From Candidatus Omnitrophota bacterium (lineage in GTDB: Bacteria; Omnitrophota; Gorgyraeia; JAHIPI01), in assembly GCA_016931215.1 (NCBI GenBank), contig JAFGFD010000051.1, positions 1 through 45,370 on the forward strand: a stretch of DNA of 45,370 nucleotides, in the 5' to 3' direction. Made by a program: the position numbers and the translations under genes. Shown one piece after another: positions 15,821 to 37,570 of this stretch. The first letter of the stretch is position 1. Each line of letters begins with the position of its first letter. The notes under the pieces are model-generated. The model ran no database searches, was not told the DNA's origin, and worked only from the letters and a program-made list of their open reading frames with translations.

Positions 15821-16645
15821 CTACGTTAAATCGAAACGTCTCTTAATGAACCCGCCGACTCTCTGTCCAAGATCCTTGCGGGTCTCATTCTTTCGTATAA
15901 AATCCACTACTGCGCTGCCTACTATGACGCCGTCCGCAATCGAGTTTATCTCCCTCTGCTGCACAGCGTTTGATACGCCAAAGCCGACACATACCGGCTT
16001 GGCGGTGAACTCCTTTATCTTCTTAATGTGAGCCGCTATATCGGCGGGTAATACCTTCCTTGCGCCGGTTACGCCCGTCAAAGAAACATAATATATGAAC
16101 CCCTGCGACCGCTTTGCTATTATCTTTAAACGCTCCACCGTGCTGGTCGGAGAAGCGAGAAATATTACCGAAAATTTCATATTGTTGGAATATCGCACAA
16201 TATCCTCTGCTTCATCCGGCGGAAGATCGGGAAAGATTACGCCGTCTACGCCGCATGAAACAGCGTCCTTCACGAACTTATCCATCCCGTAATGGTAGAC
16301 CGGATTGAGATAGCTCATCAAAACTATGGGGATGTCACTTTTGCTCCTAATAGACTTTACGCGCTTCAGGATCCCCGTCAGGTTTGCGCCTCTCTCAAGG
16401 GCCTTTTCTGAAGATTTCTGTATAGTCAGCCCGTCTGCCATAGGATCGGAAAAAGGCACGCCAAGCTCAACTATGTCGACACCCGCACTCTCCAATGCCA
16501 ATACGATGTCCTCGGTCATTTTAAGCGAAGGGTAACCGGCGGTTATGTACGTAATAAACGCTCTTTTCCTTTTTTTCCTCAATTCTAGAAATTTTTTTTC
16601 TATTCTGTTCATAAAATTTATATCTTCTTTTAGGCCATAGTCCAT
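15821..16645 (-). CDS. trpA: tryptophan synthase alpha chain
   Basis: 274 aa with AGVDIVELGVPFSDPMADG, the YxNP loop and GFGV motifs. It follows trpB. Confidence 0.95.
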   Translation of the reverse strand: MDYGLKEDINFMNRIEKKFLELRKKRKRAFITYITAGYPSLKMTEDIVLALESAGVDIVELGVPFSDPMADGLTIQKSSEKALERGANLTGILKRVKSIRSKSDIPIVLMSYLNPVYHYGMDKFVKDAVSCGVDGVIFPDLPPDEAEDIVRYSNNMKFSVIFLASPTSTVERLKIIAKRSQGFIYYVSLTGVTGARKVLPADIAAHIKKIKEFTAKPVCVGFGVSNAVQQREINSIADGVIVGSAVVDFIRKNETRKDLGQRVGGFIKRRFDLT

Positions 16646-16671
16646 AGTCTATCGTCTATAGACCACAGACT
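16630..16671 (-). repeat. six-unit 7-nt periodic array spanning the trpB-trpA spacer and the trpA start codon
   Basis: mRNA sense reads AGUCUGU GGUCUAU AGACGAU AGACUAU GGACUAU GGCCUAA. The AUG of trpA lies across the unit 4/5 boundary, and it contains the palindrome GGTCTATAGAC. Confidence 0.8.
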
Positions 16672-16674
16672 ATT

Positions 16675-17853
16675 TCAAAACTTAAAATATTCCTTAACGA
16701 TATCGATGTCTTTGTCGCCTCTTCCCGAAAGACATACGATGATACTATCTTTCTTGCTCAGTTTGGGAGCGATTTTAGAGGCGTAATAAATAGCGTGCGC
16801 CGGCTCCAACGCCGGTATAATGCCTTCCATTTCCGAAAGCATCTTAAATCCCGAAAGGGCCTCCCTGTCATTGACGGCAACGTATTCCGCTCGCTTTGTG
16901 TTCATATAATACGTATGCTCGGGCCCTACTCCCGGATAATCCAAACCCGCGCTTACGGAATGCGTGGTCTCGATCTGTCCGTCATTATCCTGAAGCACCG
17001 CGCTCTTAGAGCCGTGAAGTATTCCGATCTTTCCCTTCAAAAGACTTGCCGCATGAGATCCTGAAGAGAGCCCCAAACCGCCTGCCTCCACGCCGATAAA
17101 TGAAACCTTGTCCTTGTAGAAAGGATAAAAAAGCCCTATTGAGTTGCTTCCGCCTCCGACGCAAGCGATAAGACAACGAGGTAGTTTTCCTTCGACATCG
17201 ATTATCTGTCGCCTCGCCTCTCTGCCTATTACGGACTGAAAGTCCCTCACCATCATCGGATAAGGATGAGGACCTACTACCGAACCGAGTACATAATGCG
17301 TAGTATTTATATTCGTAACCCAATCTCTCAGTGTCTCATTTATAGCGTCCTTCAATGTCTTCGAACCGCTAGAAACGGGTATGACCTGAGCTCCCAAAAG
17401 ACGCATCCTGAAGACGTTTATAGCCTGTCTGCGTATATCCTCCTCGCCCATATAAACTGAACACTTGCATCCGAAAAGGGCGGCTGCCGTCGCGGTTGCG
17501 ACACCATGTTGGCCCGCTCCGGTTTCCGCTATTATTCGATACTTCTTCATGCGTAGCGCCAGCAGCAATTGGCCGATCGTATTGTTTATCTTATGAGCGC
17601 CCGTATGTAAAAGATCTTCCCGCTTTAGATATATCTTAGCGCCTCCGAATCTCTTCGTAAGGTTACGGGCGTAGAAAAGAGGGGTCGGTCTACCTGCGTA
17701 TTCCTTGAGATAATATTCCATCTCTTTTCTGAATGATTTCTCCTTCTTGGCCGACATATATTCCTTTTCAAGGTACTGCAAAGCGGACATTAACGTCTCC
17801 GGGACGAACCTGCCTCCGAATTTTCCGAAATATCCCTTTCTATTTGGTATCAT
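16675..17853 (-). CDS. trpB: tryptophan synthase beta chain
   Basis: 392 aa with the PLP-lysine region [15 protein letters not shown] and GGGSN. Confidence 0.97.
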
Positions 17854-17863
17854 ATCTTCCCCA

Positions 17864-20251
17864 TCAATTTATAAGTAACTCCTGCATGCCGCCGGATAGA
17901 TCGAAAGCCAATTTAAGAAGCCCGTCTTTATGCTTAAATGAAAGCTCTCTGCCGTCTAAAAGAATATTGCCCGGCTTTCTCGTCTCAATCGCCAATTCCG
18001 CCCTGCCGCCGGCTACGCCGTGAAGCAACAGGCGAATTTGCCTGTCTTCGCATCGAGCCTCCAATATCTCAGCGGTTGAATATCTGATCTTCACACGCTG
18101 CGACAAAGGTACGTTAAGAGGCAGTATACAGGCGTTTCTGTTCGCCAAAAGAATCTTGCCTTCCTGCGGAATAGTAACGGATTTATTCAATCCCGGTATC
18201 CTTAGCGACAGCGTGGCCTCCCTGGGCTCGTCGTTGAAATTGCAGACCGTTAAAAAACCGTATTTCCTGTTCGATCTCATCACAACATGCACGTCCTGGG
18301 GCGAAACCTTTATCTTAGGCTCGATATTCAACATCTGCATGAAATGGCCCATAAGGATGATATGATAATCGAGCGTATGCATAACTCCGAATCCCAGCAA
18401 CAGCAGTTTCCCCTTTTTAACCTTCTTCAATATGCCGCACGGTTTTTTATCGCGTGTCCTGGCAACTACCCGCCTCTTTTTTGAATCGAAAACTTTGATT
18501 TCTCCTTCAACGAAATAGTCCTTGCCGGTAACATATACCAAATTGTCCCTTATGGTCTCCGTAACATTTACCTCGAATTCCTTCAGAAATGCCTCATCCC
18601 TCAAAAGACCCATGTTTTTTGTGGGTACTGTGGGACTCATGATGAGCGTCCCGCCGGATCTTACATAATCGACCAATTTGAGTTGCGTAGGTTTGTCCAT
18701 ATAGTCCAGGCTAAATACCCACATTGCAGGTATCTCCCTAAGATCTTTATCTTTAATGCGTTCTATATCTACCAGACGATAGTTAAAACCATTCAACAGC
18801 AGTAATCTTGCCATGCCGTCAAAGAAAAATTTATCCCTGGAAACCGTCATATTTTCGACTATGGAACCTTGTAGATAACTGGTCTCGTAATAAGGCAAAT
18901 ATAAGCCTATCGCAAAATCATAATCTTTCTTTGTATCAGCCAACAAGTCGCCGTAAGACGAGATAATCTTGCCTACATCTTCAATGGGTTTTACTTTCGA
19001 GCTCTTCCTGCCTTTGGAGTCAATAGGCGCCTGCCACTCGTGGTAACTTCCTCTGAAGCCGAGACCGGGCGGATTGACTCCCCCTGAGAACATATAGGCG
19101 TTGAGGCCGTTTATGCCGTGGCCTATAGCATATCTCGCCAGGAGGTTTATATCGTTTGGGTATATCCTGGGCCTGTCGTTCATCCCTCCTACTTGCATCT
19201 CAGCGCAAAACACGGGAGCCTCTTTATCCTTTATCATCTTGAGGCCTTCGGTCATTATTATAGAATCATGAAAATTTTCAAAATTGAGGTTCCTCATCTG
19301 ATATGCGCCTCCGAATACCACGCCCGGCGTGTATCTTCCAAAATCGCGAAATTGGGCTATATTCATAAGCCCCTGGTTGCCCCTGGCGCAAATGTTGTAA
19401 TCCCAAAACATCGGTATGTTGGCCGCAAAGGGTAATTTGATGTTCGCTTTTTTGGCCTGTAAGTAGAGGAAATTGTAATAACGGGCATAGAAATCTCTAT
19501 AAAATCTGACCCAGTCCCAACACCGTATCACGCCCTCTTCATCCACATCACCCTTCGGCTGTGTTATCTCGGAAAACTTGACGTGATTTGTGTAATATTT
19601 GTCATTGAGCCGCGATAGGTTATTGTCGTAGGACTTTTCCAAAAATTCACCGTACATCTTATTGGTGGCTTCGTTATAATCCGGGCAATTCATCACCCAA
19701 TTCATCATCCCTATTTCGTTGTCCAGTTGGACCATAAGAATCGGCCCGCCCTTATTGAGCTGGTTCTTTTGGACTATGGGCAATATCTTTGAGTACCATT
19801 GCGAGATGTGCTTGACGTAAATAGGGTGCATATATGATACCATGGCCTCGTGAAGAACATTGCCGCCTTTTCTGTTCTTCGAACGAGCCTCTTGGTACTT
19901 CTCCAAAAACCACATGGGCGTACCCTCGCCCTTCATTTCCGCATTTGAGGTAGGGCCGACTCTCGCGATTAAATACAATCCTGTATTCTTGACGAGTTTT
20001 ATGAAGCTATTTAGATCTCTTTCGCGGGAGGTCTTGCCCGTTAAGTCAAAAGTTCCTTCATCGGGCTCGTGCCAACTCCACGGTATGTATGTGCTTATCG
20101 TATTTAATCCCGCCTCCTTAGCCTTTCTCAATCTATCGCTCCATTTGTCCTTGGGCATCCTGAAATAATGTATCTCTCCCGAGTAGATGAGGAAAGGGCG
20201 TCCGTTTAAAATAAACCTTCCGTCTTTCAATTCCACTTTCTGCCTTTTCAT
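17864..20251 (-). CDS. GH35-like glycoside hydrolase (beta-galactosidase / exo-beta-glucosaminidase family), cytoplasmic
   Basis: 795 aa with no signal peptide. It has [31 protein letters not shown] and [14 protein letters not shown], a near match to the GH35 signature GGP[LIVM]2xxQxENE[FY]. There is a good SD (GGGAGAG), and the stop lies 10 nt before the trpB start. Confidence 0.72.
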
Positions 20252-20284
20252 ATAACTCTCCCTTTATGGCATATAGTTTCTATT

Positions 20285-22099
20285 CTATAATACGGTCTTT
20301 TCCGCTTCTTCTTCCTTCTCTTTCTGCAACTCAATCCTGTCTATATAGATTTTCGAGTTCTCTACAGGGTGTTTAGACCTTAAGGTAAACGACATCTCTA
20401 TGATGCGGGAGAGTCCGAACATATTGTCTCCGTACGTGACGCCGTCATAGCTTGAGCGCTCGAAGTCCTCCCATAAATTAAAGATATATTTCCTCCATCC
20501 GCTTCTATTCAAAAATATCGGTGGAGATATATACACCTCTCCTTCGCGGTCCTTTATATTGAAAGTCGCTATGTTATTATTACCGCTCGTCCCGTTGGAA
20601 TAAACCCATAGACTCAGCGTATCATATGTGCTCCAGTCTTGAGGATAGAGAAACTTCCTGACCAGGGCAGCGGTTGCCACCTTCGCCCCATCGTCCGGAA
20701 TAAACTCTATACCCAAGGAATATATGCCGTCGACCACTATCTCGTCGGACCTTTCCGTGAATAACTTGGCCTTTTTGGTAAATATCAAATCTTCGGGATA
20801 GGCCGTGCAAAACTTTATATCCGAACACTCGAAATCGTCTATAACGGGCATAAATTGGCATCTCCCGTCATAGTCCAACTTATCGATTATTTGATTGGCC
20901 AGTTCCAGCTCGCCCGTAGCCGAAAACGGATTGAATTTGTTTTCGGCAAAATAATACCAAGTCGTCGATGATATACATAACGGCTTATCCTGCATCATCC
21001 AGCTGTCGTATACGGGAGTCCCCTCGTTGCTTGCGTAAGGAAGCCCCATAGTGTAAGGGAAAGTGGGGCTATCGGTCAGGCAATTCCTTATCTGATCCAG
21101 ATAATAATCGCTCTCTTTTTCCCTCCCGGCAATGGAAAAGGCCAATACCATATGGGCCGTACCCTCAAACCAAACGGCATCTTTATCCGGAAAAGGTGAC
21201 CTCTTATAGTCGGAGCCAAAGTCGAATCCTTCAACCTTAACATTCTTCACTTTATATGTCTGGGTATTCAGGCTCTTATCCATGGCAAAATCGAGGCTTG
21301 GCGCATACTCAATGCCGAGGCTTAACACAGCCCAGCTGGAGAGGTCTGTAGCAAAATTGGGGTTGTTCTTTCCCAGGAAGAACCTCTTGTTCTCCTCGTT
21401 CCAGACGTCATCTACGAGCCATCTCTTTACTTCTTTTGCCTTTTTCAAATATTTATCATCCGCTGTCAATATGCCTAAATCCCGAAACCCTGCGTAACAA
21501 TCAAAATTATGCTCCGTAGAGACCCACGTCATGGGCTTGCCGTTGCCGTAATAACCTCCTATGCAACCACCGTCAATACATTGTAGAGATATAAGCCAAT
21601 CCGCTAAGTCCCTCGCCAGCGGTAGAAAGCTCTTATCATTGGTCTTGTACATATAGTAGTTTAGCGCCATCAAGACCCACGCGTTGGGCCCGGCGGCTCT
21701 GGTCTCAGTCTCTCTGCCGTCACGTTTGTATGTGTCGGTGAAACCTATGAGATTGCCATACTTTTTTATGTGCCTCTCCCTCACTCCATCAAAAAAATTG
21801 AATATAGCCTTTGCCTTCTGGTAATCGCCGTGATGAGTAAAAGCAAACGCGGCAAGAGCCTGATCATAAACAAAACAATCCTCTCCCCCTTCGTGGCTGG
21901 GTAATAACCCCGTGTGGAAAAGTATATATTTCCTGTTTGCCCTTTGATTTGAGCACAGCCATTGATACACCTTGTCAAGATCAGACCACTCCTGGTGGCC
22001 TTTAGTTGCGATACTATCTTGATAAACAGGAAAAAATATCACAATAGCAGCAGAAGCTGCCAACATCAGAATTAACAACGCAAAAAAATACTTTTTCAT
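20285..22099 (-). CDS. membrane-anchored/secreted protein: (alpha/alpha)6-barrel-like N-domain plus C-terminal CBM11/CIA30-like beta-sandwich
   Basis: 604 aa with an N-terminal hydrophobic anchor (FFALLILMLAASAAIVIFF). The helical-repeat region (YDQALAAFAF...GPNAWVLMALNYY...ADWLISLQ...) suggests a six-hairpin fold. The C-terminal ~170 aa follow the DDFE...WVYSNG...IYIDRIEL pattern. Fold calls are made by eye only. Confidence 0.5.
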   Translation of the reverse strand: MKKYFFALLILMLAASAAIVIFFPVYQDSIATKGHQEWSDLDKVYQWLCSNQRANRKYILFHTGLLPSHEGGEDCFVYDQALAAFAFTHHGDYQKAKAIFNFFDGVRERHIKKYGNLIGFTDTYKRDGRETETRAAGPNAWVLMALNYYMYKTNDKSFLPLARDLADWLISLQCIDGGCIGGYYGNGKPMTWVSTEHNFDCYAGFRDLGILTADDKYLKKAKEVKRWLVDDVWNEENKRFFLGKNNPNFATDLSSWAVLSLGIEYAPSLDFAMDKSLNTQTYKVKNVKVEGFDFGSDYKRSPFPDKDAVWFEGTAHMVLAFSIAGREKESDYYLDQIRNCLTDSPTFPYTMGLPYASNEGTPVYDSWMMQDKPLCISSTTWYYFAENKFNPFSATGELELANQIIDKLDYDGRCQFMPVIDDFECSDIKFCTAYPEDLIFTKKAKLFTERSDEIVVDGIYSLGIEFIPDDGAKVATAALVRKFLYPQDWSTYDTLSLWVYSNGTSGNNNIATFNIKDREGEVYISPPIFLNRSGWRKYIFNLWEDFERSSYDGVTYGDNMFGLSRIIEMSFTLRSKHPVENSKIYIDRIELQKEKEEEAEKTVL

Positions 22100-22192
22100 A
22101 CTTAATTTTAAAATAAAACCTCCCTTTCTTCAATATTAAAATTCAGATTATATAATAAGCTAATAAAGATATTGAAGTGTGAAAAGACCGTA

Positions 22193-24493
22193 TTACAAGC
22201 TCAGGGCCTCTTTTATCCTCTTCTTAGAATAAATAGCATACTCTGAAGTCGGAAAATTGTCAATTATATATTGATATTCTCTCTGCGCCTCGGTATGGCG
22301 CCCCAATGACTCAAGTATCAGGGCGAGTTCGTATCTGGCTTGGGCCAAAAAAATACCCTCTGCATACATACCTATGATCTCTCTAAGAAAAGAGATAGAT
22401 CGCTCTTTGTCCTTGCCGCCCCCGTTCTTAGAAAGGATGGTCAACGCTTCTTTTACTGCATTCTTCGAAAGCTCGCTCCCCGGAAATGTATGTATGAAAT
22501 CTTTAAATGACGCGACCGCCTCATCGTATAAGCCTTTCTCTTTAAATGTAAAGGCGATATTATAAGCTGCGTCGTCAGCCAATTCACTATTGGGAAATTC
22601 CTGAAGCAGTCTTTCGCACAAAGCGATTGATTCGTTATATTGAGCTTTACCTCTGTATGCCGCCGAAATCTCCAATATAGTAAATGATATCTCTTCCTCG
22701 GGCTTGTAATCGAGGGCCATATTTACGTAAGCATCATATAATATTTTTGCTCGATGAGTATTGCCGTCATCCATATCGCCCTCTGCCTCGGTCTTAAAGA
22801 TAGCGAGGGCGTCTTCCGGGTCCCATTGTTCCCGCGTCTCCTCGACGAATGTGCGCAGCAATCTATCCGATGCACGCTGTTCCGCCTTCGCCTTAAGCAA
22901 TTTTGAATATGCCAGGAGCGGCTTGGTATCCTTGGTATCTTTTGCGTATGCGATACATGAGTCTTCCAATAGAGACAGAATCGTGTCTTCTCGGCCGGTC
23001 AGCAATTCATTGTTTATGTCCCATTTTAAATACAAGGCCTTAAGGTATGTCTCTTTATCGCCGGTATCTTTAAGGAGTGTTTCGATCTCTTCGAAAATAA
23101 GCGGCAATTCTCTCGTCTTTTCAGCGAAGTAAGTCTCCCAGTCGCCGATCGCGCAAAGATGCTCGAGCTTTTTCCATCGGGCAAGTACCGTGTAATAATC
23201 GACAAGGCCCAAATACCGCGTTCGGTCGTATAGTGATCTATTTCCCTTCAGTAAATCCGCAAACTGGTCATAACATGACTTTTCGAAATAGGCTTCCGAC
23301 AGTCTCTCGAGGACCTCCGGGACGTTAAAATGCGACGGATTCTTCAGTTTATTCACAAGTATCGCTGCCCTGCCGCCGTCGACAAATCTCTTTTCTCTCC
23401 AGCCGCTTCTGAGGGCACGTTTCCGGGCTGTTAAATACGATCCCTTGAAATAATCCGATATCGCAAACAGCGTCTCCTTTAATATCGTGTTCCTAAACAA
23501 TCTTTTCAGGACATAGTAGCCGTTTTTAAAACTCCTGTCACCCTCCACTACTCCCCAGTGTTCTTCAACATGCCTATCTTGTAAACCGCTATTTCCCGCC
23601 TTGGACCAGTTGTCGGCCCACTGAAAAATTATAATGCCGTCCAGCTTTTTAAGCGCCTTCGAGATCTGTTCGCCCAAGACCCCTTCCTGTTCATCTCTTG
23701 TCCAGAAGGTGCTGTATCCGGCCTCCGTGATTATAACGGGTTTACCGTACTCTTTGCGCAGTAGGGCCAGTTCGTCTACAATGCGTTCGGCTTCTCCGGA
23801 ATCATACCCGCCTCCGATCCAATCTGTCACGCCTAAATAAACGTTAAACCCGAGGATATCCAGAAAGTCTGCACCCAGACGCCTGAGGTCTGGCTCCATA
23901 GCCAATGTCGCGCCGATGACAGGCCTTAAGGGATCTTCCATCTTGACCGTCTTGTAGATCTCGCGAAGGAATCGACTGACCGCATCCTCGCCGTAAACAT
24001 CGGTAACGTCTCCCTTGCCACTGCCGTATGTCCAAGGTGCATCGTTCCAAATACCCCAGGCGTAAACACACTCCCTATCTTTGTCCCGCCTGATATTTCT
24101 TACCGCGTCCCTTTTGAGCGCCTTCAGTTGATACGGTGAAGTGAAATCAGTCCATTCTCCGGGGAATGCGATCGTCTCTATCACCTTAAATTTGTACTTC
24201 TCGGCCAAATCAAGTATGAATTCAGGTGGAATTCCGTAAAGCCTTAAGGTATTTATGCCGGCCTTCTTCATAAGTTTGAAATCTTCTTCGAAAACTGAAA
24301 CCGGGACCTGGGAATAATGGCTTGTAGCCGGATAACTTAAGTCATAGGTAACGCCTTTGATGACGTCACTCTCTCTGGGTACCAATAGAGCCAGAAAGAG
24401 TAATCCAAAGACAGAAATAGTCAAAACCAATATTGCGGCCTTGACTACGTTTCTCAAATTAATTTCTCTTTTTACCTTTTTCTTCTTCGGCAT
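22193..24493 (-). CDS. N-terminally anchored clan GH-A (beta/alpha)8 glycosidase-like domain fused to C-terminal TPR repeats
   Basis: 766 aa with a basic N-terminus and one TM segment. The TIM-barrel-like region carries INTLRLYG, WGIWNDAPW (the NE position reads ND) and KPVIITEAGYS (nucleophile-like Glu). The C-terminal ~350 aa have TPR-like A/Y/L periodicity (AQYNESIALCERLLQEFPNSELADDAAYNIAF...). Confidence 0.6.
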   Translation of the reverse strand: MPKKKKVKREINLRNVVKAAILVLTISVFGLLFLALLVPRESDVIKGVTYDLSYPATSHYSQVPVSVFEEDFKLMKKAGINTLRLYGIPPEFILDLAEKYKFKVIETIAFPGEWTDFTSPYQLKALKRDAVRNIRRDKDRECVYAWGIWNDAPWTYGSGKGDVTDVYGEDAVSRFLREIYKTVKMEDPLRPVIGATLAMEPDLRRLGADFLDILGFNVYLGVTDWIGGGYDSGEAERIVDELALLRKEYGKPVIITEAGYSTFWTRDEQEGVLGEQISKALKKLDGIIIFQWADNWSKAGNSGLQDRHVEEHWGVVEGDRSFKNGYYVLKRLFRNTILKETLFAISDYFKGSYLTARKRALRSGWREKRFVDGGRAAILVNKLKNPSHFNVPEVLERLSEAYFEKSCYDQFADLLKGNRSLYDRTRYLGLVDYYTVLARWKKLEHLCAIGDWETYFAEKTRELPLIFEEIETLLKDTGDKETYLKALYLKWDINNELLTGREDTILSLLEDSCIAYAKDTKDTKPLLAYSKLLKAKAEQRASDRLLRTFVEETREQWDPEDALAIFKTEAEGDMDDGNTHRAKILYDAYVNMALDYKPEEEISFTILEISAAYRGKAQYNESIALCERLLQEFPNSELADDAAYNIAFTFKEKGLYDEAVASFKDFIHTFPGSELSKNAVKEALTILSKNGGGKDKERSISFLREIIGMYAEGIFLAQARYELALILESLGRHTEAQREYQYIIDNFPTSEYAIYSKKRIKEALSL

Positions 24494-24512
24494 GGTATTT
24501 GACGGCTATGCG

Positions 24513-24590
24513 AACAGCCAACAGCCCACGGTCTTTCATCCTTACATTCAGGGTTAGCCCCTAAGGAGACAAGCCATGGGCTGTTAAGAA
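24513..24590 (-). other. long nested intergenic hairpin with a tandem AACAGCC heptamer
   Basis: The outer 12-bp stem pairs AACAGCCCACGG (24520-24531) with CCATGGGCTGTT (24574-24585), including one wobble in RNA. Inside it are TCCTTA/TAAGGA and GGG/CCC stems. AACAGCC is duplicated in tandem at 24513-24526. Confidence 0.5.
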
Positions 24591-24620
24591 TAGCAAGACG
24601 TATCTATAAAGATTATGATA

Positions 24621-25601
24621 TTACTCGCTGTTGGTAAATATAAAATTATCGATAAAAGCAATATCCCCTTTTTGATTGCCGACATCGCTGCCAAATGCCA
24701 GCCCGATATTATCCATTTGGGATAAATCGACTCTGCTCGAGATGGCTCCGAGAGGTATAACCAACTTCTGCCATGATGTAGTTAGAGCGGGTAGCGGATA
24801 TTCCGCCTGCGGCATGTAGTCCAAGGCATGCGCGTCCCTGGCAATGAACTTCATCTTCTCCCCGCCTTTTTTTCCTTTTGCCCAAAACACAAGATATTTA
24901 TATTTCGAAACATCCAAACTCTCGACCTTCTTAGGCATAGTCGTGACATCGACCGTAGGACCGAGGTCCATAGCGAAACTCCCCCATCCCTCATTTGATT
25001 TAGTCCCGAGTCCTGTTACCAGCCTGAACGATTGGCGTCCGGCATGAATATCTTTAGTGTTATATCCTGGTGTAACCGGCTCAAAGACCCACGAATACGG
25101 CGTCGTAGTCACTTCATCCCAATCAGGCTCCAGAGATCCATAGACACCCATCTCTCCCCCGACATTGTTGGGCCACCCCTCGAAATCAGCGGCCAGCAAA
25201 TCTTCCTCGGACAAAGCAACGGCACCGGGCACCTCGGGCTCTTCTATAAAATCGACGTCCTCTATGGTCTCCGTAACCACCTCCTCCTCGATCGTACTCA
25301 GAGTATCGAATAACTCTTCCGCCTCGTCTTTCGCTTCTTCGATCTGGCGAACGATCTCTTCGTCCTCTTTAGTAACGACAAGCGGCATCGGTTCCTCCGC
25401 TTTCAACTCCTCCTCTGCACTCTTCGACATTTCTCTCAATGTCTTCTTGTAAGCGCCCTCTGTATCGGTTTCGGCAATCTTCTTCTCTATTGAAGAAATG
25501 ATCTCTTTTGCCGACGGTGACGTAGCCTTCTTTTCTCCGCATCCCGAAAGGGCGACTGCGCACATGAGAGAGACCAACAGCACATATCCTGGTAAACGCA
25601 T
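24621..25601 (-). CDS. lipoprotein: acidic low-complexity linker plus CBM11/CIA30-like beta-sandwich (paralog 2)
   Basis: 326 aa with the lipobox ALSGC and an E/D-rich region of about 100 aa. The C-terminal ~190 aa align closely with the neighbouring 227-aa protein and end in FIFTNSE. Confidence 0.6.
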   Translation of the reverse strand: MRLPGYVLLVSLMCAVALSGCGEKKATSPSAKEIISSIEKKIAETDTEGAYKKTLREMSKSAEEELKAEEPMPLVVTKEDEEIVRQIEEAKDEAEELFDTLSTIEEEVVTETIEDVDFIEEPEVPGAVALSEEDLLAADFEGWPNNVGGEMGVYGSLEPDWDEVTTTPYSWVFEPVTPGYNTKDIHAGRQSFRLVTGLGTKSNEGWGSFAMDLGPTVDVTTMPKKVESLDVSKYKYLVFWAKGKKGGEKMKFIARDAHALDYMPQAEYPLPALTTSWQKLVIPLGAISSRVDLSQMDNIGLAFGSDVGNQKGDIAFIDNFIFTNSE

Positions 25602-25653
25602 TTTTACATGTCTCCTCTACGGTTTGGAAATAGCGCCGCACGGAACGGCGATG

Positions 25654-26337
25654 CTATTCACTGTTTGTGAACATAAAGGTATCCAGGTATACTATAGCTC
25701 CTTTTCTGTTACCCAGATCCACTCCGAATGAAATTCCTACATTGTCCAGTGTATTTAAATCGATCCTCTTCTTTGCCTTTGCCAAAGGAACTACCACCTT
25801 CTCCCATTCGGTAGTAGCCGGCGGTAAGGGATGCTCATATTGAGGCATATAGCTCAACGCATGTGAATCCCTCATTATGACCTTGATCTTTTCTCCTCCC
25901 ATAGCCCCCTTGTACCAAAAGGTCAAATATTTAAAACCCGAGGCATCGAAAGATTCCACTTTTTTGGGGGTAACGGTCGTATCTATCGTTTGGCCCATGT
26001 CCATGGCAAAACTTCCCCAGCTCTCATTCGGCTTTGTTCCGAGGGCGTTCACCAACCTCATGGACTTGTTGCCGTCATGCACGTTGATAGAGTTATATCC
26101 GGGTGTCACCGGCTCGTACACCCATGAATACGGCACTGTCTCCTTCATGTCCCAATCAGGTTCCAGGGAACCGTATACCCCTATGTCGCCTCCTAGATTA
26201 TTCGGCCACCCTTCAAAATCCGCAAGCATCACGCTGTCCTCCCCGGTCTCTTCTGCGCGGAGATCAAAGCCAACCGCGAAAGAGAAAGACAAAACGAGTA
26301 TCGCTATCGCAAAACTTGTACCTATCCTTTTAAACAT
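25654..26337 (-). CDS. secreted CBM11/CIA30-like beta-sandwich protein (paralog 1)
   Basis: 227 aa with a signal peptide (IAILVLSFSFAVG). It carries ADFEGWPNNLGG...GVYGSLEPDWD...PYSWVYEPVTPGYN...WGSFAMDMG...FWYKG...GGEK and ends in FMFTNSE. Confidence 0.6.
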   Translation of the reverse strand: MFKRIGTSFAIAILVLSFSFAVGFDLRAEETGEDSVMLADFEGWPNNLGGDIGVYGSLEPDWDMKETVPYSWVYEPVTPGYNSINVHDGNKSMRLVNALGTKPNESWGSFAMDMGQTIDTTVTPKKVESFDASGFKYLTFWYKGAMGGEKIKVIMRDSHALSYMPQYEHPLPPATTEWEKVVVPLAKAKKRIDLNTLDNVGISFGVDLGNRKGAIVYLDTFMFTNSE

Positions 26338-26356
26338 TTATAACCTCCTTCATCTT

Positions 26357-28786
26357 TTACCCCATAATGACTTCTACCTTATGGGTCTTTTTATCCCGTC
26401 TGTGTCTCACTATATTATGTTTCTGCTCTATTCCGTCAACTATCATCTTCTTTACTCCCCGCTGAACGCCTTTAGGATTCTTTATGACGATATTATATAC
26501 GTCGTTCCGGAAGGACCTGGTTATCTCGCACTTCTTCCATTGAGAGGGTATGACGGGGTCTATTCTCAGACCGCTGAACTCCCGATGAACGCCCAATAGA
26601 TGTTCGGTCGCAGCTAAAAACGTCCAGGCGGCTGTGCCGGTTATCCACGTAAAAGCCCCTTCTCCGTATCGATAAGGATGCTCCGGACCTATCAGATATT
26701 CAGCGTATACATATGGCTCCGTCTTATAGACGTCGTAATCCTCCTGGCTATTAGGCATGATCTTCTTCATGCTTCCATACGCTTTATCTCCTCTTCCAGC
26801 CACGCAGTCCGCCACTATTTTGAAAGTCGAGGCGTGACAAAAGACGGCTGCATTCTCTTTTGTGCCTTCGGAAAACATGGTTATCCTGCCAAGCTTAGGA
26901 TTATAATTTGAGTAGGCCGGGTAAAAGAGCGCCACTCCGTGTTTGCCGTCGAGGTACTTATCGACCGATTCAAAGAGCTTTTCGGACCTCTGTCTATCCG
27001 CGACTTCGCTCAACACGGCCCAACTTTGCGTATTCACAAAGATCTTTCCCTCGCTATTTTTCGACGCGCCGTAAACGGTCCCATCGTCCGTAAAGCCCCT
27101 GACGTACCAGTTTCCGTCCCACGCAATATCGTTTATGCGCGTCGCCATTACCTTTGCGCGCGTCCTTAGGTACTTAGCCTTGCGCACATCTCCCAATATA
27201 TCCGCCAGCTCCGCCAGTAATCTGTAAGAACGTACGAGTGCCATGGCGAGCCAGACGCTTTCGCCCTTCATCGCTTTTCCCGCAGCGTCAATGGCGTCAT
27301 TCCAATCGGCATGGCCTATCAAAGGCAGTCCCCGTCTGCCTACATCATTGAAAGTAAAGTTGAGATTCTTCTCAAGGTGCTCGAAGAGAGTCCCTTCTCC
27401 GTCTTTGATAACGCCTTTTTTCCAGTGGATATCCTTTTTTGTACCCTTCTCTATCCACGCATCTTTTATGTAAGGGAATTTCTGTATGAGAATATCTTTA
27501 TCCCCTGTCTCCTTGACATAAGCCGATACTGTGGAGACCAGCCACGTAGGGTGGTCTTTATTGGGCATGTGGTTAGCGGGACCTCTGGTCGTAGACCACC
27601 CAGGGCAACATGAACCGTCCCTTCTTATCAATCCCGCAATAGTTTTGATTTTGGAAAGCGCATGGTCGCTGTCAATGGCCATGATGCCTTCAGCATCCTG
27701 GCAGGAGTCTCTATATCCCTTGCCGCCCGACCCCTCATGATAATAAGAGGGTGAACGTGACCATAGATTGCATATATACATCTGATATTTAAGCCAGATA
27801 TTCGTCATGAGGTCGAAACTTCTGTCCGGTGTCTTTACCCATATGTTATTTACAATGCGGTCTCTCCAGATAGTCTTGACGTTCTCCAATTCCTCTTTGG
27901 CCGTCGTTAAATTTCTATATTTTGCGACAAGTTCCTTCACCTTCGATTTGCTGGGAATCTGCCCCAATATCACGACAAATTCCCTTGTGCCGCCGGCTTT
28001 CAAAGCCACTTTATGGCGAAATGCGCCTATGCCGTCTTCGCCGGAACAGAATCGAGACTCCATGAAATGGTCTGAGGTGACAGACTGCGGCTTCTCTTCA
28101 TTATTGAATTTGCCCAAAAACAGATCCTTTCTCGTAGCCACACCCAGAACAGGAAGGCTTGAAGCAAAGAAGGCTATCGAATGAAAAGGCTTAATGTTGA
28201 GAGCCTCCCACATCGCAGTCTTGCGGGCAAATATAATACCGTTTTCATCATCCGCCCAAAACCTGTTGTACAGGTTCATAATGTTTCTATATCTCAATTC
28301 CTCGTGATAATCGCCTATGAGCCATTCGACATAAGGCACTACAGTCAAATCCCTGCTCCTGCGCGTCTTATTTGAAAGTTTGACCAACCATATCTCACAC
28401 GTATCTTCAGACGGAACAAAGTAAGTGACCTCAGAATCTATCCCGTAATACCTGGTCTTTATCACCGTGTAGCCCAGTCCGTGTCTGGCGGTAAAACCGT
28501 CAGGTTCCGCTTTTACGGGCTGATATGTAGCGCCCCAGTATTTTTTTGTCTCGTTATCCTTTAAATAAATATATTTGCCGGGTCTGTCTTTATGATAGTT
28601 TTCCGGATTCCATCGGGTGACGCGGTCAGAACGGCAATCCTTATAAAAACTATAGCCTCCCCCGCATTGCGATATAACCGAACAATAATCGGCATTTGTA
28701 AGATAATTAATCCAGGGCCGCGGTGTGTTGGGTCTTTTGATTATAAACTCAAGTCCGTCTTTCGAAAAATTTCCGTATTTTACCAT
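26357..28786 (-). CDS. GH94 glycoside phosphorylase (cellobiose/chitobiose-phosphorylase-like)
   Basis: 809 aa and cytoplasmic. The N-terminus YGNFSKDGLEFIIKRPNTPRPWINYLTN closely mirrors the GH94 disaccharide-phosphorylase N-terminus. A catalytic-Asp-type motif GHADWNDAID is present, and the length fits the disaccharide phosphorylases. Confidence 0.82.
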   Translation of the reverse strand: MVKYGNFSKDGLEFIIKRPNTPRPWINYLTNADYCSVISQCGGGYSFYKDCRSDRVTRWNPENYHKDRPGKYIYLKDNETKKYWGATYQPVKAEPDGFTARHGLGYTVIKTRYYGIDSEVTYFVPSEDTCEIWLVKLSNKTRRSRDLTVVPYVEWLIGDYHEELRYRNIMNLYNRFWADDENGIIFARKTAMWEALNIKPFHSIAFFASSLPVLGVATRKDLFLGKFNNEEKPQSVTSDHFMESRFCSGEDGIGAFRHKVALKAGGTREFVVILGQIPSKSKVKELVAKYRNLTTAKEELENVKTIWRDRIVNNIWVKTPDRSFDLMTNIWLKYQMYICNLWSRSPSYYHEGSGGKGYRDSCQDAEGIMAIDSDHALSKIKTIAGLIRRDGSCCPGWSTTRGPANHMPNKDHPTWLVSTVSAYVKETGDKDILIQKFPYIKDAWIEKGTKKDIHWKKGVIKDGEGTLFEHLEKNLNFTFNDVGRRGLPLIGHADWNDAIDAAGKAMKGESVWLAMALVRSYRLLAELADILGDVRKAKYLRTRAKVMATRINDIAWDGNWYVRGFTDDGTVYGASKNSEGKIFVNTQSWAVLSEVADRQRSEKLFESVDKYLDGKHGVALFYPAYSNYNPKLGRITMFSEGTKENAAVFCHASTFKIVADCVAGRGDKAYGSMKKIMPNSQEDYDVYKTEPYVYAEYLIGPEHPYRYGEGAFTWITGTAAWTFLAATEHLLGVHREFSGLRIDPVIPSQWKKCEITRSFRNDVYNIVIKNPKGVQRGVKKMIVDGIEQKHNIVRHRRDKKTHKVEVIMG

Positions 28787-28826
28787 TCTTGCTGTCTTCT
28801 CCTGTCTTATTACTTATCCTGTAGCG

Positions 28827-30131
28827 TCAGTTTCCCTCGCTCAACAATCTATCGGCCTCGGGCGCAATCTTCGCCATGGCATCCTCCACTGACTCCGACC
28901 CGTTAAAGACTAAATCGAGTTGGGGGCTCAGATGGAGATCGTTGATCTCCCTCCATTTGATATGAAAAGGCTCAAAGATCACATATTTTACGGCTTCGTT
29001 AAGCATGCCTTTATTGAGCGGCGGCTTGGAATTTCCGGCAAAATGCTCTCCCATCGCAATGGATCTCCTGGAAGGCTGCGTCAATCCCATTTCCGAAAGT
29101 GCTATCTGCGCCTTTTCGCCCGTCAGGGTCTTGACTATATCCCACGCCAATTCCGGGTATCTTGTCGTCCTTAAAACGCAGTATCCGGAACCTCCTGTCC
29201 CGAAACGTCTGATACCCGTGGGCCCTTTGGGAAACATGGCAACGTCCCAGTCAAAATCCTTGATATTCTTAAAAAGAGTGCTCTCCCAGAAACCCGACTG
29301 GTACATAGCGAGCTTGCTCGACATAAAGAGCTGCTGTGCCCCCATTCCCAGGTTTCCGAATTCAACGGGGCTGGGGCAGACCTTGTGCACATTTATTAAA
29401 TCCGCATAAAACTTCAGCCCGTCTACGCCTTCTTTCTCATTCATGACAAATCTTTTAGGGTCTTGGACGTCGTCAACAATACCGCCGCCGTTGGAATAGA
29501 CAAAGTTCTGCCACGTCCATCCGTAATATCCATACTGAGAAATCGTTCCGTCGGCGGACCTCTTCGTCAACTTCAACGCCTTGTCCAATAGGTCGGACCA
29601 ATCCCAGTCGTCGGACGGATAAGCGATGCCCGCTTCGTCAAAAAGCTTTTTATTAAAATAGACGCAGGCGAAAGGCGCGTTATCCCGCGGAATGCAATAG
29701 ACCTTGCCATCTATCGTAAATCTGTCAACTATCTCCGGGAAAAAGTCGTCTATGCTAAAATCTGGGTCTTTATCGATAAAAGGTTTCAGATCCAGAAATG
29801 CGTCCATAGCCCAAAAGTTTACAAAGATATTCGCCTCTACAAACATCACGTCTGGAGCTGTGCCGCCAGCTATCCTGATGAGAAGTTTGTTGGTGTAAGA
29901 GCCTGCCGGCGTATGCTCCAGTTTGGCGATAACCTCAGGATGCTTCTCCTGCCATTCCTCTACCAGCGAATTCAACATCTCGATCTCATCCGTACCTCCC
30001 CATATGGCAATTTTTATCACAGGTTTTTCTTCCCTGACCTGGCCGCATCCGAGGGTACAAACTAATAAAAATACCATAAACATCGCGCCAATAAAAAAAG
30101 TTACCGAATATTTCTCAAAATTTTTCATCAT
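28827..30131 (-). CDS. ABC-type extracellular sugar-binding lipoprotein (family 1 SBP), with no cognate permease in the window
   Basis: 434 aa with a signal/lipobox-like CTLGC. It has a typical carbohydrate-SBP layout (IKIAIWGG...WQEKHPEV...APDVMFV...). Confidence 0.78.
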   Translation of the reverse strand: MMKNFEKYSVTFFIGAMFMVFLLVCTLGCGQVREEKPVIKIAIWGGTDEIEMLNSLVEEWQEKHPEVIAKLEHTPAGSYTNKLLIRIAGGTAPDVMFVEANIFVNFWAMDAFLDLKPFIDKDPDFSIDDFFPEIVDRFTIDGKVYCIPRDNAPFACVYFNKKLFDEAGIAYPSDDWDWSDLLDKALKLTKRSADGTISQYGYYGWTWQNFVYSNGGGIVDDVQDPKRFVMNEKEGVDGLKFYADLINVHKVCPSPVEFGNLGMGAQQLFMSSKLAMYQSGFWESTLFKNIKDFDWDVAMFPKGPTGIRRFGTGGSGYCVLRTTRYPELAWDIVKTLTGEKAQIALSEMGLTQPSRRSIAMGEHFAGNSKPPLNKGMLNEAVKYVIFEPFHIKWREINDLHLSPQLDLVFNGSESVEDAMAKIAPEADRLLSEGN

Positions 30132-30205
30132 GGGATATCTCCGTACTTTAGTATTATGATATAATTTATGTATAATTAAAATTTGCGGGGATTACTATAA
30201 CATAC

Positions 30206-30838
30206 TCATTCTTTGGAGTCAAGGCTTTTTATGTAGCCTATAAGTTCTTTCATCTTATTTTTATCTTTTATGCCCGGAGACCGTTCTATAGAGCTGGATA
30301 TATCTATACCATAAGGCCTTACGGTCTTAACCGCCTCCTCGACGTTATGCAAACCGATTCCGCCCGATAGTATAATCGGCATACCATAAGATTTGGCCTT
30401 AACGGCCAGGCCCCAGTCAAAACTCTTGCCGGTTCCGCCGTACTCATTGGCTGAATATGTATCGAGCAGATATGCAAATACCCTCTTATAGGCAGTGATG
30501 GTCTCGAGCACTGTTTGGTCTTTCATCCTGAATGACTTGATAATTCCGTAGTCGCCTATATCATTGCAGTAGTCCGGCGATTCTTCACCGTGTAGTTGTA
30601 GTGTATTCAAACCGCAATAATCGGCAATCTCCTTTACTTTTTTGGAATCCTCGTTTACAAACACCCCCACGGTCAAAATATAATCATTTTTAATATAATC
30701 GATTATTTCTTTGGCCCTGGAGGGTTCTATGCACCTGGGACTTTTGGCAAAGATAAATCCCAATGCATCGGCGCCGTACCGGACGGCTGACTTTGCGTCA
30801 TCTAAATTGGTAAGACCGCAGATCTTGACTAATTTCAT
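30206..30838 (-). CDS. trpF: phosphoribosylanthranilate isomerase
   Basis: 210 aa with MKLVKICGLT, ADALGFIF, LQLHG and GGTG motifs. Confidence 0.93.
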   Translation of the reverse strand: MKLVKICGLTNLDDAKSAVRYGADALGFIFAKSPRCIEPSRAKEIIDYIKNDYILTVGVFVNEDSKKVKEIADYCGLNTLQLHGEESPDYCNDIGDYGIIKSFRMKDQTVLETITAYKRVFAYLLDTYSANEYGGTGKSFDWGLAVKAKSYGMPIILSGGIGLHNVEEAVKTVRPYGIDISSSIERSPGIKDKNKMKELIGYIKSLDSKE

Positions 30839-30898: not shown

Positions 30899-31681
30899 TT
30901 AAGAGAGCAAATCCCTGATTTTGCTCCCTATATCATCACTCGCCATCAACGCTTCCCCTATTAGTACGGCATTGATGCCCAACGAAAGCAGATATTGTAT
31001 GTCCTTCCTGTCATGTATCCCGCTTTCCGAGACTATAATCTTGTCCTCCGAAATCATCTTAAGTAATCTCGGGGTCGTCTTGACGTCGACTTTAAGACTG
31101 TGCAGATTCCTGTTATTTATCCCTATTATGGCGCAGCCTGTATTCATGGCCTTTTCCGCGTCCTCTTCGGAATGGATTTCAACCAGGGCATCCATGGAAT
31201 AGCTCTCGCATATAGCCAGAAATCTCTTCAATTCTTCGGGAGAAAGCAGGTCGGCAATCAAAAGGAGAGCATCCGCCCCGGCGCAAACGGACTCATATAT
31301 CTGATATTCGTCTATTACGAATTCTTTTCTGAGGACCGGGACGCTTACATTTTTCTTTATAGCCTCCAGATGCGATAAGCTTCCTTTAAAAAACTTTTCA
31401 TCGGTCAAAACAGAAATGGCAGAGGCACCGTTTGCCTCATAGATAGAAGCTATCTTCAAAGGATCGAAATCTCTTCTGATAACGCCGGCGCTCGGAGAGG
31501 CCTTCTTCACTTCGGCAATGAGGTGTATCTTATGCGGCTTGCTTATGGAATGTTTAAAAAAATTATGTTTTCGCTCGGATTTAAGCCGGTCTGCCTCGTC
31601 TATGACCGCAGCTATAGGGGTCTGGGCCTTTTTGCCGTCTATCTCCTTCTTCTTTTCTTCGATAATCTTATTTAAAATCAT
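30899..31681 (-). CDS. trpC: indole-3-glycerol phosphate synthase
   Basis: 260 aa with IAEVKKASPS, ISVLTD..FF.GS and IGINNRNL motifs. Its start has a 4-nt overlap with the trpD stop. Confidence 0.95.
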   Translation of the reverse strand: MILNKIIEEKKKEIDGKKAQTPIAAVIDEADRLKSERKHNFFKHSISKPHKIHLIAEVKKASPSAGVIRRDFDPLKIASIYEANGASAISVLTDEKFFKGSLSHLEAIKKNVSVPVLRKEFVIDEYQIYESVCAGADALLLIADLLSPEELKRFLAICESYSMDALVEIHSEEDAEKAMNTGCAIIGINNRNLHSLKVDVKTTPRLLKMISEDKIIVSESGIHDRKDIQYLLSLGINAVLIGEALMASDDIGSKIRDLLS

Positions 31682-32691: not shown

Positions 32692-32694
32692 CTC

Positions 32695-32743
32695 TGTGTC
32701 TCCTGTCTATAGTCTATTGTCTATAGTCTATAGTCTATAGACC
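32695..32743 (-). repeat. seven-unit heptanucleotide array (GTCTATA / mRNA AGACUAU) filling the trpG-trpD spacer
   Basis: mRNA sense reads GGUCUAU AGACUAU AGACUAU AGACAAU AGACUAU AGACAGG AGACACA, then GAG-AUG(trpD). The last two units contain the SD AGGAG. Confidence 0.9.
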
Positions 32744-32748
32744 ATTAC

Positions 32749-34803: not shown

Positions 34804-34854
34804 ACGCTCTTTTTCTATTATTCTGATTTAATCGATGGTCGATAGTTTTATTTC

Positions 34855-34913: not shown

Positions 34914-34921
34914 AAACTTTT

Positions 34922-37565: not shown

Positions 37566-37570
37566 ATCTT

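Follow-up and report, generated by a model that had tools for sequence, protein, structure and literature searches.

Why a tryptophan (trp) operon should be interrupted by genes for glycan processing, and whether the two have anything to do with one another, is the question raised by a contig of a Candidatus Omnitrophota bacterium (JAFGFD010000051.1, assembly GCA_016931215.1). The window considered here is the whole stretch of 45,370 bp and is an entire contig of an Omnitrophota metagenome-assembled genome (MAG). Within it, trpE-G-D-C-F and trpB-A are parted by seven genes on the same strand (17864-30131, minus strand), referred to below as the island. In order of transcription, these encode a sugar-binding lipoprotein, a phosphorylase of glycoside hydrolase (GH) family 94, two paralogous β-sandwich proteins that resemble carbohydrate-binding modules (CBMs), two membrane-anchored proteins with glycosidase-type folds, and an enzyme of family GH35. 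All genes of a whole-pathway trpEGDCFBA operon are found (7/7), in the canonical order and on one strand, with a gap of 12.3 kb in place of the contiguity of trpF and trpB. The arrangement is probably explained by a self-contained operon for β-glucans or β-gluco-oligosaccharides that was inserted at the trpF-trpB junction of an ancestral hisI-trpEGDCFBA-manC-ruvX array, which has been broken repeatedly at that point. That the island lies inside the trp operon is best regarded as an accident of genome rearrangement that has been tolerated, not as an adaptive link to tryptophan.

The trpF-trpB junction and its cargo

The same block is found between trpF and trpB in a number of other assemblies. 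Comparison contigs are given L numbers here; among those traced from homologs of the 604-aa anchored protein, the block is carried by L002/L003, L005-L007, L014, L015/L178, L016, and L177. Including the window, the arrangement is present in at least seven independent genomes from JGI, ENA, NCBI, and Logan assemblies; an identical Logan contig of 4.8 kb spans the gene for the 604-aa anchored protein, the GH35 gene, and trpB. The island-bearing relatives also share the downstream order trpA-manC-ruvX-M16-M50-rpe-pgm. Their 604-aa proteins are 63-71% identical to that of the window and their TrpB proteins 77-80% identical, and in L015, L016, and L178 one additional TIM-barrel gene after GH94 makes an eight-gene block.

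The genes trpF and trpB normally overlap and are translationally coupled, and this is the form seen in two relatives that share the flanks and have no island. L012 reads trpD-C-F-B-A-manC-ruvX-M16 and L097 reads hisI-trpE-G-D-C-F-B-A-manC-M16-rpe-pgm, with trpF and trpB overlapping in both; the TrpB of L097 is 73% identical to that of the window. The overall G+C content (GC) of the island and its GC at third codon positions (GC3) equal those of the flanking genes. Because the block is conserved at this degree of divergence, has the composition of its flanks, and is absent from relatives in which trpF and trpB overlap between the same neighbors, the insertion is, on the sequences compared, old and fixed, and would date to an ancestor of one Omnitrophota clade. 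A preliminary description of this DNA had already supposed an old, fixed insertion and had suggested a check of trpF-trpB synteny, which now finds the island recurring in one clade of at least seven genomes. A mobile genomic island was also considered and was rejected. Of the island genes, none is recognized by Pfam as encoding an integrase or transposase, a regulator, a sugar permease, or an outer-membrane transporter, a repeat scan finds no direct repeats at its edges, a scan of the window finds no tRNA gene that might have been a target, and its composition is not deviant; the absences that had been listed earlier are thereby borne out within the island.

In related lineages, the junction is occupied by quite different genes. 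L103 has an ROK gene and a SAM hydroxide adenosyltransferase gene at this position (L103:7730-10001), and L101 has genes for a PMT_2 glycosyltransferase-like protein and a zinc-ribbon protein (L101:5966-8206). A small open reading frame (ORF) for a zinc-ribbon membrane protein is found in L106 (~1700-2090) and L132 (~7915-8270), and a nucleotidyltransferase-like ORF in L110 (~1520-1880). The genes are split in L109 and L116, where no trpF is present within 10 kb upstream of trpB. To judge from these gene orders, breakage has recurred at the trpF-trpB junction, where the glycan block is one cargo among several. Since unrelated insertions occupy the same site in related lineages, a permissive breakpoint is favored over a functional link between tryptophan and glycans, and the tie that had been drawn between the island and the trp genes was overstated.

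A homolog of the 604-aa protein (615 aa, 38% identity) is found in a more distant relative whose trpDCFBA is uninterrupted (L012:10001-11848 and L030:10001-11752), about 2.4 kb upstream of trpD and after a sigma-54 two-component pair. This family may have adjoined the trp genes already at the arrival of the block, or the proximity may be a coincidence.

The island appears to have its own promoter. A consensus scan identifies TTGACT-17 nt-TATAGT with a TG-extended -10 element at 30194-30222 on the minus strand (10/12 matches plus the TG). This sigma-70-like promoter overlaps the trpF stop, and the last codons of trpF (..L-D-stop) provide the -35 hexamer. In the form CTTGACt-N17-TnTGnTATnnTA, it precedes the island in all six of the six genomes with a visible junction; across these orthologous loci, neither CTTGAC nor TnTGnTATnnTA changes, the distance from one to the other is constant, and the intervening and adjoining sequence varies. 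In L005, the complete motif lies ~85 nt 3' of the trpF stop, in non-coding DNA, so the conservation is not a by-product of the trpF reading frame. The motif is missing from the uninterrupted relatives.

Transcription from this promoter may well continue into the distal trp genes. In L014 and L015, successive genes of the island are separated by -4 to 15 nt, which is consistent with a single operon. No conserved promoter is found within 400 nt upstream of trpB in the six loci, where there are two weak, non-homologous 9/12 matches, and the scan identifies no terminator-like site at either island junction. Because neither a conserved promoter nor a terminator precedes trpB, trpBA is probably co-transcribed with the island, which would then be an operon inside an operon, with trpBA driven at least in part by the island promoter. 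The preliminary description had placed trpBA expression behind the island and had named a strong terminator and promoter just upstream of trpB as what would speak against this. Read-through remains plausible, as no such elements are conserved, but the island's own conserved promoter at the trpF stop had been overlooked.

The seven genes that had been listed, and the spacers at both edges, are correct on re-analysis. The upstream edge is a spacer of 74 nt (30132-30205). The downstream edge, between GH35 and trpB, is a spacer of 10 nt, TGATGGGGAAGATATG (17854-17863, minus strand), which holds the trpB ribosome-binding site GGGGAAG. This tight spacing had been taken as coupling and is not a conserved property: the window and L016 have 8-10 nt at this point and the other loci 62-138 nt, with neither the length nor the sequence of the spacer conserved.

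The longer GH35-trpB spacers of the relatives are filled by heptamer-repeat hairpins that are also present between his genes. Such tandem 7-nt repeats (TATAGAC x5; TTGGTTA ATGGTTA TCGGTTA) fill many of the his and trp intergenic spacers, and are found in the window on the minus strand at 38186-38310, 37435-37570, 34804-34949, 32692-32748, and 16646-16674 and in relatives at L002:14237-14367, L014:10726-10787, L015:14153-14248, and L177:14184-14321. There are often two arrays, inverted and able to form a long hairpin, and the unit varies by spacer and by genome; the island's own spacers in the window contain none. The arrays recall the heptameric short tandemly repeated repetitive (STRR) sequences of cyanobacteria. 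A role for the heptamer-rich spacers, before trpE in the window and before trpB in relatives, as a trp-specific regulatory RNA was rejected, since the his-gene spacers hold the same arrays. At the Rfam gathering thresholds, no T-box, trp leader, or other element is found near the trp genes in the window or in four orthologous loci, and the one match is a cobalamin riboswitch located away from them.

The trp genes, all on the minus strand, are readily assigned. The proximal block starts with trpE, for anthranilate synthase component I (33340-34803; PF00425 322 bits, PF04715 134 bits), and continues with trpG (32749-33321; PF00117 209 bits), trpD (31678-32691; PF00591 302 bits, PF02885), trpC (30899-31681; PF00218 287 bits), and trpF (30206-30838; PF00697 156 bits; NF002298 224 bits, cut-off 215). 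Beyond the island are trpB, the eighth gene downstream of the island promoter (16675-17853; TIGR00263 618 bits, cut-off 392), and trpA (15821-16645; PF00290 288 bits). The minus strand carries every sizeable ORF of the window. By Pfam and NCBIfam, these belong to one co-directional housekeeping run in which recA, htrA, and alaS are followed by hisD-B-H-A-F-I and trpE-G-D-C-F, and trpB-A by manC, ruvX, an M16 peptidase, an M50 peptidase, rpe, pgm, lepA, and lepB.

The cobalamin riboswitch (RF00174, 89.6 bits) lies at 7080-7268 on the minus strand. Downstream of it are a TonB-dependent receptor gene (5042-6952) and genes for a periplasmic-binding/ABC/FecCD transporter, an ATP-binding cassette (ABC) system of the Fe/B12 type (2208-5016). 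Together, these form a B12 uptake locus that ends the housekeeping run. Further along, the 439-nt "spacer" at 1068-1506 (minus strand), between a diphthamide-synthase-like gene and a membrane transporter gene, contains an ORF of ~75 codons (MITRIGIVAGEIWQLLESNENMTLSEIKTKL...) that is missing from the 100-aa ORF list, and a hairpin and T-run come after this ORF.

The proteins encoded by the island

The first gene of the island (28827-30131, minus strand, as are all the genes described below) encodes a 434-aa solute-binding protein of the SBP_bac_1 type (PF01547, 124 bits), which starts with a signal or anchor sequence and contains TLGC, resembling a lipobox. Among solved structures, its top relatives are an arabino-oligosaccharide-binding protein (6RJY, 1.9e-37) and Lmo0181. 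Homologs with 50-52% identity travel with the module in L022 and L026. No permease gene adjoins the gene in the window.

The second gene (26357-28786) encodes a cytoplasmic GH94 glycoside phosphorylase of 809 aa (PF17167 345 bits, PF06165 231 bits). Against solved structures it scores 457 bits with the cellobiose phosphorylase CtCBP (3QDE), 431 with the chitobiose phosphorylase ChBP (8BOU), and 352 with the GH94 domain of Cgs. The laminaribiose and cellodextrin phosphorylases are distant, and no SOGP structure is found among its matches at E <= 1e-5. The motifs ADWND (as GHADWND), RDS.QD (as GYRDSCQD), CH (as FCH), and EPYVY align with CtCBP 3QDE. By comparison with cellobiose phosphorylase structures, GHADWND, GYRDSCQD, and FCH would hold the catalytic Asp and the phosphate-binding residues.

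The last gene of the island (17864-20251) encodes a cytoplasmic GH35 enzyme of 795 aa (PF01301, 167 bits against a cut-off of 27; PF22369). Among characterized GH35 enzymes, it is, by sequence score, closest to the Ignavibacterium album β-1,2-glucosyltransferase IaSGT (7VKW, 378 bits), with 238-256 bits for the GlmA group (5GSL, 5GSM, 6JOW, and 8OUG) and ~105 bits or less for the galactosidases. LDNEIG of the window protein aligns with LCNEIG of IaSGT, and CAEMQ with AAEFQ, so that both catalytic Glu residues are kept; in IaSGT these are E176, the acid/base, and E343, the nucleophile (PMC8861115). In the D-N-E motif of the window enzyme, an Asn directly precedes the acid/base Glu. IaSGT likewise has Asn175, where TkGlmA has Asp178, and it is this Asp of the GlmA enzymes that recognizes the amino group (PMC8861115). 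The position matching Asp309 of IaSGT is Ala, with the contact there made by the main chain. The alignment stops at residue 677 of 795, and the window protein has an extra BetaGal_dom2-like C-terminus. The earlier designation "GH35-like" was correct as to family, but a generic GH35 or a GlmA does not fit, since both the score and the Asn-Glu motif are of the IaSGT type.

Between these enzymes lie four genes for envelope proteins. The first (25654-26337) encodes a secreted, CBM-like β-sandwich protein of 227 aa with a signal peptide visible in its sequence, and the second (24621-25601) a lipoprotein paralog of 326 aa in which a perfect lipobox, ALSGC, and an acidic linker precede the shared β-sandwich. 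The two are 63% identical over 195 aa, which confirms the tandem paralogs that had been described. Their assignment to the CBM11/CIA30-like families does not hold by sequence, as neither they nor the 604-aa protein reach the Pfam threshold for CBM11/CBM30 (~17 bits against a cut-off of 27), and no solved relative of the 227-aa protein was found by sequence. The 227-aa family is rare, with 214 representative clusters among 1.84 billion proteins, and it adjoins the 604-aa family in nearly every locus examined. The C-terminal half of the 227-aa protein (residues ~125-225) also occurs, in a library of representative proteins, as a repeated module in giant multidomain proteins of up to 7809 aa. Giant surface proteins have been reported for Omnitrophota, and the repeated module may link this family to them.

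The third envelope gene (22193-24493) encodes a membrane-anchored protein of 766 aa in which a clan GH-A TIM barrel is joined to tetratricopeptide repeats (TPRs). The AlphaFold model (pLDDT 86) has a Lys/Arg-rich start, an N-terminal membrane helix (13-37), a (β/α)8 barrel (~45-335), and ~420 residues of TPR-like helices (an all-helical region at ~345-765), and TPR family matches are found in the sequence by Pfam. Foldseek relates the barrel to GH2 catalytic domains and glucuronidases and to the laminarinase LaGH157. A profile of the family has LaGH157 as its best solved match (9FZ9, 5.5e-29); the enzyme's name comes from the Foldseek description, as a literature search on 9FZ9, 9G5G, and 9G4N gave no publication. 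The domain on its own reaches at best E ~1e-6, solely against GH2 glucuronidases, and the profile match is, from these searches, probably driven by family members fused to family GT2 glycosyltransferases. Distant homologs are N-terminal domains of GT2 glycosyltransferases of ~870-1290 aa, some with NHL repeats, which suggests a hydrolase or transglycosylase domain that is common to glucan synthases and to the stand-alone anchored protein. The strand-7 nucleophile, E257, is invariant. The strand-4 acid/base position is an Asp (WNDAPW, residues ~147-153) throughout the TIM-TPR family, in place of the Glu that clan GH-A retaining hydrolases have there in an N-E motif, whereas the GT2-fused homologs keep Asn-Glu. 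In the window protein, this Asp is D151 and follows an invariant N150.

The fourth (20285-22099) encodes a membrane-anchored protein of 604 aa with an (α/α)6 barrel and a CBM11-like β-sandwich. In its AlphaFold model (pLDDT 90.7), a membrane helix (2-31) is followed by the barrel (~40-410) and the β-sandwich (419-592), and many acidic residues are invariant in the family. By Foldseek, the barrel resembles the endo-mannosidase MmpH (7QSJ, TM 0.74), GH76 enzymes, and AGE-type epimerases, at 10-14% identity, and the C-terminus resembles CtCBM11 (TM 0.72). Profile searches recover no solved relative of the family. Among 114 flanking genes examined by Pfam, no partner family recurs beside the distant (~33% identical) (α/α)6 homologs of Bacteroidota, Elusimicrobiota, and others, which therefore give no hint of a substrate. 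The fold combinations that had been proposed for both large proteins are upheld by the models. The "third copy" of the β-sandwich that had been seen in the 604-aa protein holds as a fold class but not as sequence kinship with the two paralogs (BLASTP E = 0.18).

From their positively charged N-termini, the 766-aa and 604-aa proteins are inferred to carry an N-in signal anchor, and the two enzymes would therefore face the periplasm of a two-membrane cell. The surface location that had been suggested for them thus gives way to a predicted periplasmic one.

Function, substrate, and alternative explanations

The genes of the island are also found together away from trp operons. The CBM-like and (α/α)6-CBM genes cluster with LacI, GH94, and IaSGT-like GH35 genes in L010/L011 and L095 and with GH94 in L019 and L094, and they form a trio with TIM-TPR in L008, L017, L020, and L027-L029. 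Carriers of the trio are MAGs labeled Auribacterota, UBP3, Spirochaetes, or unclassified "bacterium". The trp-embedded version lacks the LacI gene. The block is, from these co-occurrences, a functional module. The preliminary description would have been undone had its seven genes proved unrelated to carbohydrates or never co-localized in another genome; all seven are carbohydrate-related, and they are co-localized in other genomes, off trp operons as well as within them.

A working scheme for the module can be outlined. The sigma-70-type promoter over the trpF stop, whose conservation is observed, would drive the seven genes, and transcription would continue into trpBA. In the periplasm, the secreted and lipoprotein β-sandwich proteins, as placed by models and sequence, would bind a glucan, which the inner-membrane-anchored TIM-TPR and (α/α)6-CBM11-like enzymes may then cut or rearrange. 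The binding lipoprotein would hand the resulting oligosaccharides to an ABC importer encoded elsewhere in the genome. In the cytoplasm, the GH94 enzyme, as a member of its family, would release glucose-1-phosphate, and the IaSGT-like GH35 would transfer or remove β-linked glucose.

The linkage of the glucan can be given in terms of graded preference. A β-1,2 linkage is the leading single candidate, though a tentative one, because of the IaSGT-type GH35, the parallel with the I. album gene cluster, the scores of the GH94 found beside the module in L094 (459 bits with the Cgs domain and 470 bits with cellobiose phosphorylase), and the PF10091/DUF3131 (GH144-type) genes near the module in L010 and L094. 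The same candidate is weakened by the CBP/ChBP-like GH94 of the window, a binding protein that is not of the Lin1841 type, the GH157-related TIM barrel, and the CBM11 fold. A β-1,4 or mixed linkage follows closely, likewise short of even odds; some other linkage or substrate is unlikely, and a β-1,3 linkage more unlikely again.

A number of observations count against the β-glucan operon or against its β-1,2 form, and the substrate signals conflict. Among the solved relatives of the binding protein, the sophoro-oligosaccharide binder Lin1841 ranks tenth (1.6e-14). The window GH94 resembles the phosphorylases of cellobiose and chitobiose more than it does the Cgs domain, and its EPYVY presumably corresponds to E649/Y653 of CgCBP, which line the +1 glucose site. 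A CBM11 fold is typical of proteins that bind β-1,4 or mixed-linkage glucans. The profile of the 766-aa protein points to a GH157 laminarinase, active on β-1,3-glucan, and to GT2-fused homologs, and with Asp for the acid/base Glu its barrel may not be an ordinary hydrolase. For the 604-aa protein, hhalign detects no relation between its profile and the GH144-type PF10091 protein from L010, and its 50 best Foldseek matches include no structure of the SGL clan. Neither the island nor any other part of the 45-kb contig encodes an importer or sugar permease. Promoters and terminators were called by their match to a consensus, and the promoter scan returns 39 promoter-like sites against 31 in shuffles, so that a lone match is weak. 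The lineage of L012, L097, L101, and L103, finally, rests solely on shared gene order.

The alternative that survives best, though it is rather unlikely, is the turnover of an envelope glucan, in which the envelope trio would act on a glucan of the cell itself, periplasmic or secreted, by trimming, cyclizing, or recycling it, and the binding protein, GH94, and GH35 would salvage the fragments. Pairs of a hydrolase and a TPR protein are typical of the Pel, Bcs, Pga, and Alg systems, and the trio resembles these synthase-dependent exopolysaccharide pairs, or OpgG/OpgD. Both large enzymes have N-terminal anchors, without outer-membrane or secretion signals. The distant TIM homologs that are N-terminal domains of ~870-aa GT2 proteins look like synthase-linked transglycosylases, and an acid/base Asp in place of Glu could favor transglycosylation. 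The genes manC and pgm lie just downstream, but they do so in relatives without the island as well. Furthermore, a glycosyltransferase, synthase, or porin is found in or next to the island in none of the seven genomes (0/7), and elsewhere the module accompanies a LacI repressor, GH94, GH35, and GH65/β-phosphoglucomutase, the signature of an inducible catabolic system.

Omnitrophota have elsewhere been proposed to be predatory or host-dependent nanobacteria. A bolder version of the β-glucan operon would make the envelope trio a periplasmic machine not described before, with two or more new families of glycoside hydrolases or transglycosylases. It would be adapted to the periplasmic glucans of bacteria, osmoregulated or cyclic and with β-1,2 or β-1,3 linkages, which Omnitrophota would take from their prey or hosts. 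The GH35 and GH94 would finish the process in the cytoplasm, and the fixation of the island behind the trpF stop would make the expression of tryptophan synthase hang on a glycan-responsive promoter. We regard this version as improbable.

It is more improbable again that trpBA was selected for its position behind the island promoter, whether to supply tryptophan for Trp-rich island proteins or to allow indole salvage during feeding on glycans. The island proteins are indeed the most Trp-rich of the contig, with 86 Trp in 3961 residues (2.2%; 1.4-2.8% each), against 3 in 2150 for the seven trp enzymes and less than 1% for most neighbors. It also speaks for this idea that trpBA has no detectable promoter of its own and that the arrangement has been retained across relatives with 63-80% identical proteins. 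Carbohydrate-active proteins are, however, generally rich in Trp, and the composition of the island proteins probably reflects the usual aromatic richness of carbohydrate-binding proteins. The junction is split or holds unrelated cargo in related lineages, the module occurs away from trp genes in others, and the GH35-trpB spacer is variable in both length and sequence.

A chitin or chitosan pathway, with GH94 as a chitobiose phosphorylase and GH35 as a GlmA-type exo-β-D-glucosaminidase, as in the Thermococcus chitin pathway, is very improbable. The best NCBIfam model for the GH35 is an exo-β-D-glucosaminidase, a GLMA_2nd domain is present, and the GH94 scores with chitobiose phosphorylase come close to those with cellobiose phosphorylase (431 against 457 bits). 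The NCBIfam score of 289 bits is far under its cut-off of 1500, however, the enzyme scores higher with IaSGT than with any of the GlmA group, and the Asp with which GlmA recognizes the amino group is Asn in the window GH35, as in IaSGT (PMC8861115). A chitinase, a deacetylase, and a glucosamine or N-acetylglucosamine kinase were not found in the island. Lastly, an assembly chimera or chance juxtaposition, a concern with any single MAG contig since metagenome assemblies can join unrelated fragments, can be dismissed, as the same gene order recurs in diverged sequence in at least seven independent assemblies from differing samples and pipelines.

The locus offers a clean and replicated natural case in which a large operon of foreign origin, together with its promoter, has been fixed between biosynthetic genes that are normally translationally coupled. 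It should help in learning how operons accommodate insertions and how expression of the genes beyond them, here trpBA, is kept up. The three co-inherited, uncharacterized envelope families, with the IaSGT-type GH35 and the GH94, are targets for new families of carbohydrate-active enzymes and for a β-glucan pathway in Omnitrophota, of which hardly any members have been cultured. If the β-1,2 or periplasmic-glucan reading is true, the module bears on the diet of tiny, possibly host-dependent bacteria. None of these findings overturns current understanding.

Comparison with known systems

Non-canonical trp operons are well known. The aromatic supraoperon of Bacillus subtilis is one such arrangement. 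Others include split EGDC/FBA operons and the trpF-B-X-A order of Burkholderia (Kagan et al. 2008, PMC2395257), as well as trpFBA-accD-folC in Sinorhizobium (PMC6614838). As in these cases, unrelated genes on the same strand interrupt or flank trp genes that are still presumed to be functional. The described insertions, however, consist of one gene, X between trpB and trpA, or of flanking genes, whereas here a seven-gene operon of 12.3 kb with its own promoter has been inserted. Moreover, the common split is between trpC and trpF, and the island instead lies between trpF and trpB. No seven-gene operon between trpF and trpB was found in the literature searched, and recent surveys of Omnitrophota report complete tryptophan biosynthesis and many GH2-type enzymes without mention of the island arrangement.

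The envelope proteins have partial counterparts. In PelA/PelB, BcsZ/BcsC, PgaB/PgaA, and AlgL/AlgK, a periplasmic TIM-barrel or (α/α)6 glycosidase is associated with TPR modules, and the island similarly joins glycosidase folds with TPRs. Unlike in these exopolysaccharide pairs, the TPR region of the island is fused to an inner-membrane-anchored TIM barrel; there is no synthase, porin, or deacetylase, and the neighboring genes are catabolic. The 766-aa protein shares with LaGH157 (9FZ9/9G5G) and with GH2 the clan GH-A (β/α)8 fold and an aligned nucleophile Glu, but differs from both in that the acid/base Glu is replaced by Asp in the whole TIM-TPR family.

As regards uptake and catabolism, the island lacks the SusC/SusD pair of a Bacteroidota-type polysaccharide utilization locus, and the only TonB-dependent receptor of the contig is the one that follows the cobalamin riboswitch. 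With the Listeria innocua type of system, in which Lin1841 is the binding protein, the island shares the logic of a binding protein, import, and GH94 phosphorolysis of β-gluco-oligosaccharides. It differs in that the window has no GH3 and no permeases, and its binding protein is not Lin1841-like.

The closest parallel is the β-1,2-glucan (SGL) cluster of I. album, which combines GH94, a binding protein, and the GH35 enzyme IaSGT (IALB_1185) (Kobayashi et al. 2022, PMC8861115). The island likewise brings together a cytoplasmic IaSGT-type GH35 with the Asn-Glu motif, a GH94, and a sugar-binding protein. Unlike the I. album cluster, it has no GH144 or other SGL-clan endo-β-1,2-glucanase (GH144, GH162, and GH192-194 were considered, and PF10091/DUF3131 is absent from the island), no GH3, no ABC permease, and no TonB receptor. 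Its GH94 is CBP/ChBP-like, whereas IALB_1177 is described with a Cgs-type domain (PMC8861115), and its GH35 is ~90 residues longer than IaSGT. The island, in contrast to the cluster, sits inside a trp operon and holds three uncharacterized envelope families. The preliminary description went too far in proposing an undescribed system, given that a binding protein, GH94, and GH35 are similarly combined in the Ignavibacterium cluster (PMC8861115). The catabolic logic of the island is a variant of that of known β-glucan phosphorylase clusters, and it is the envelope families that are uncharacterized.

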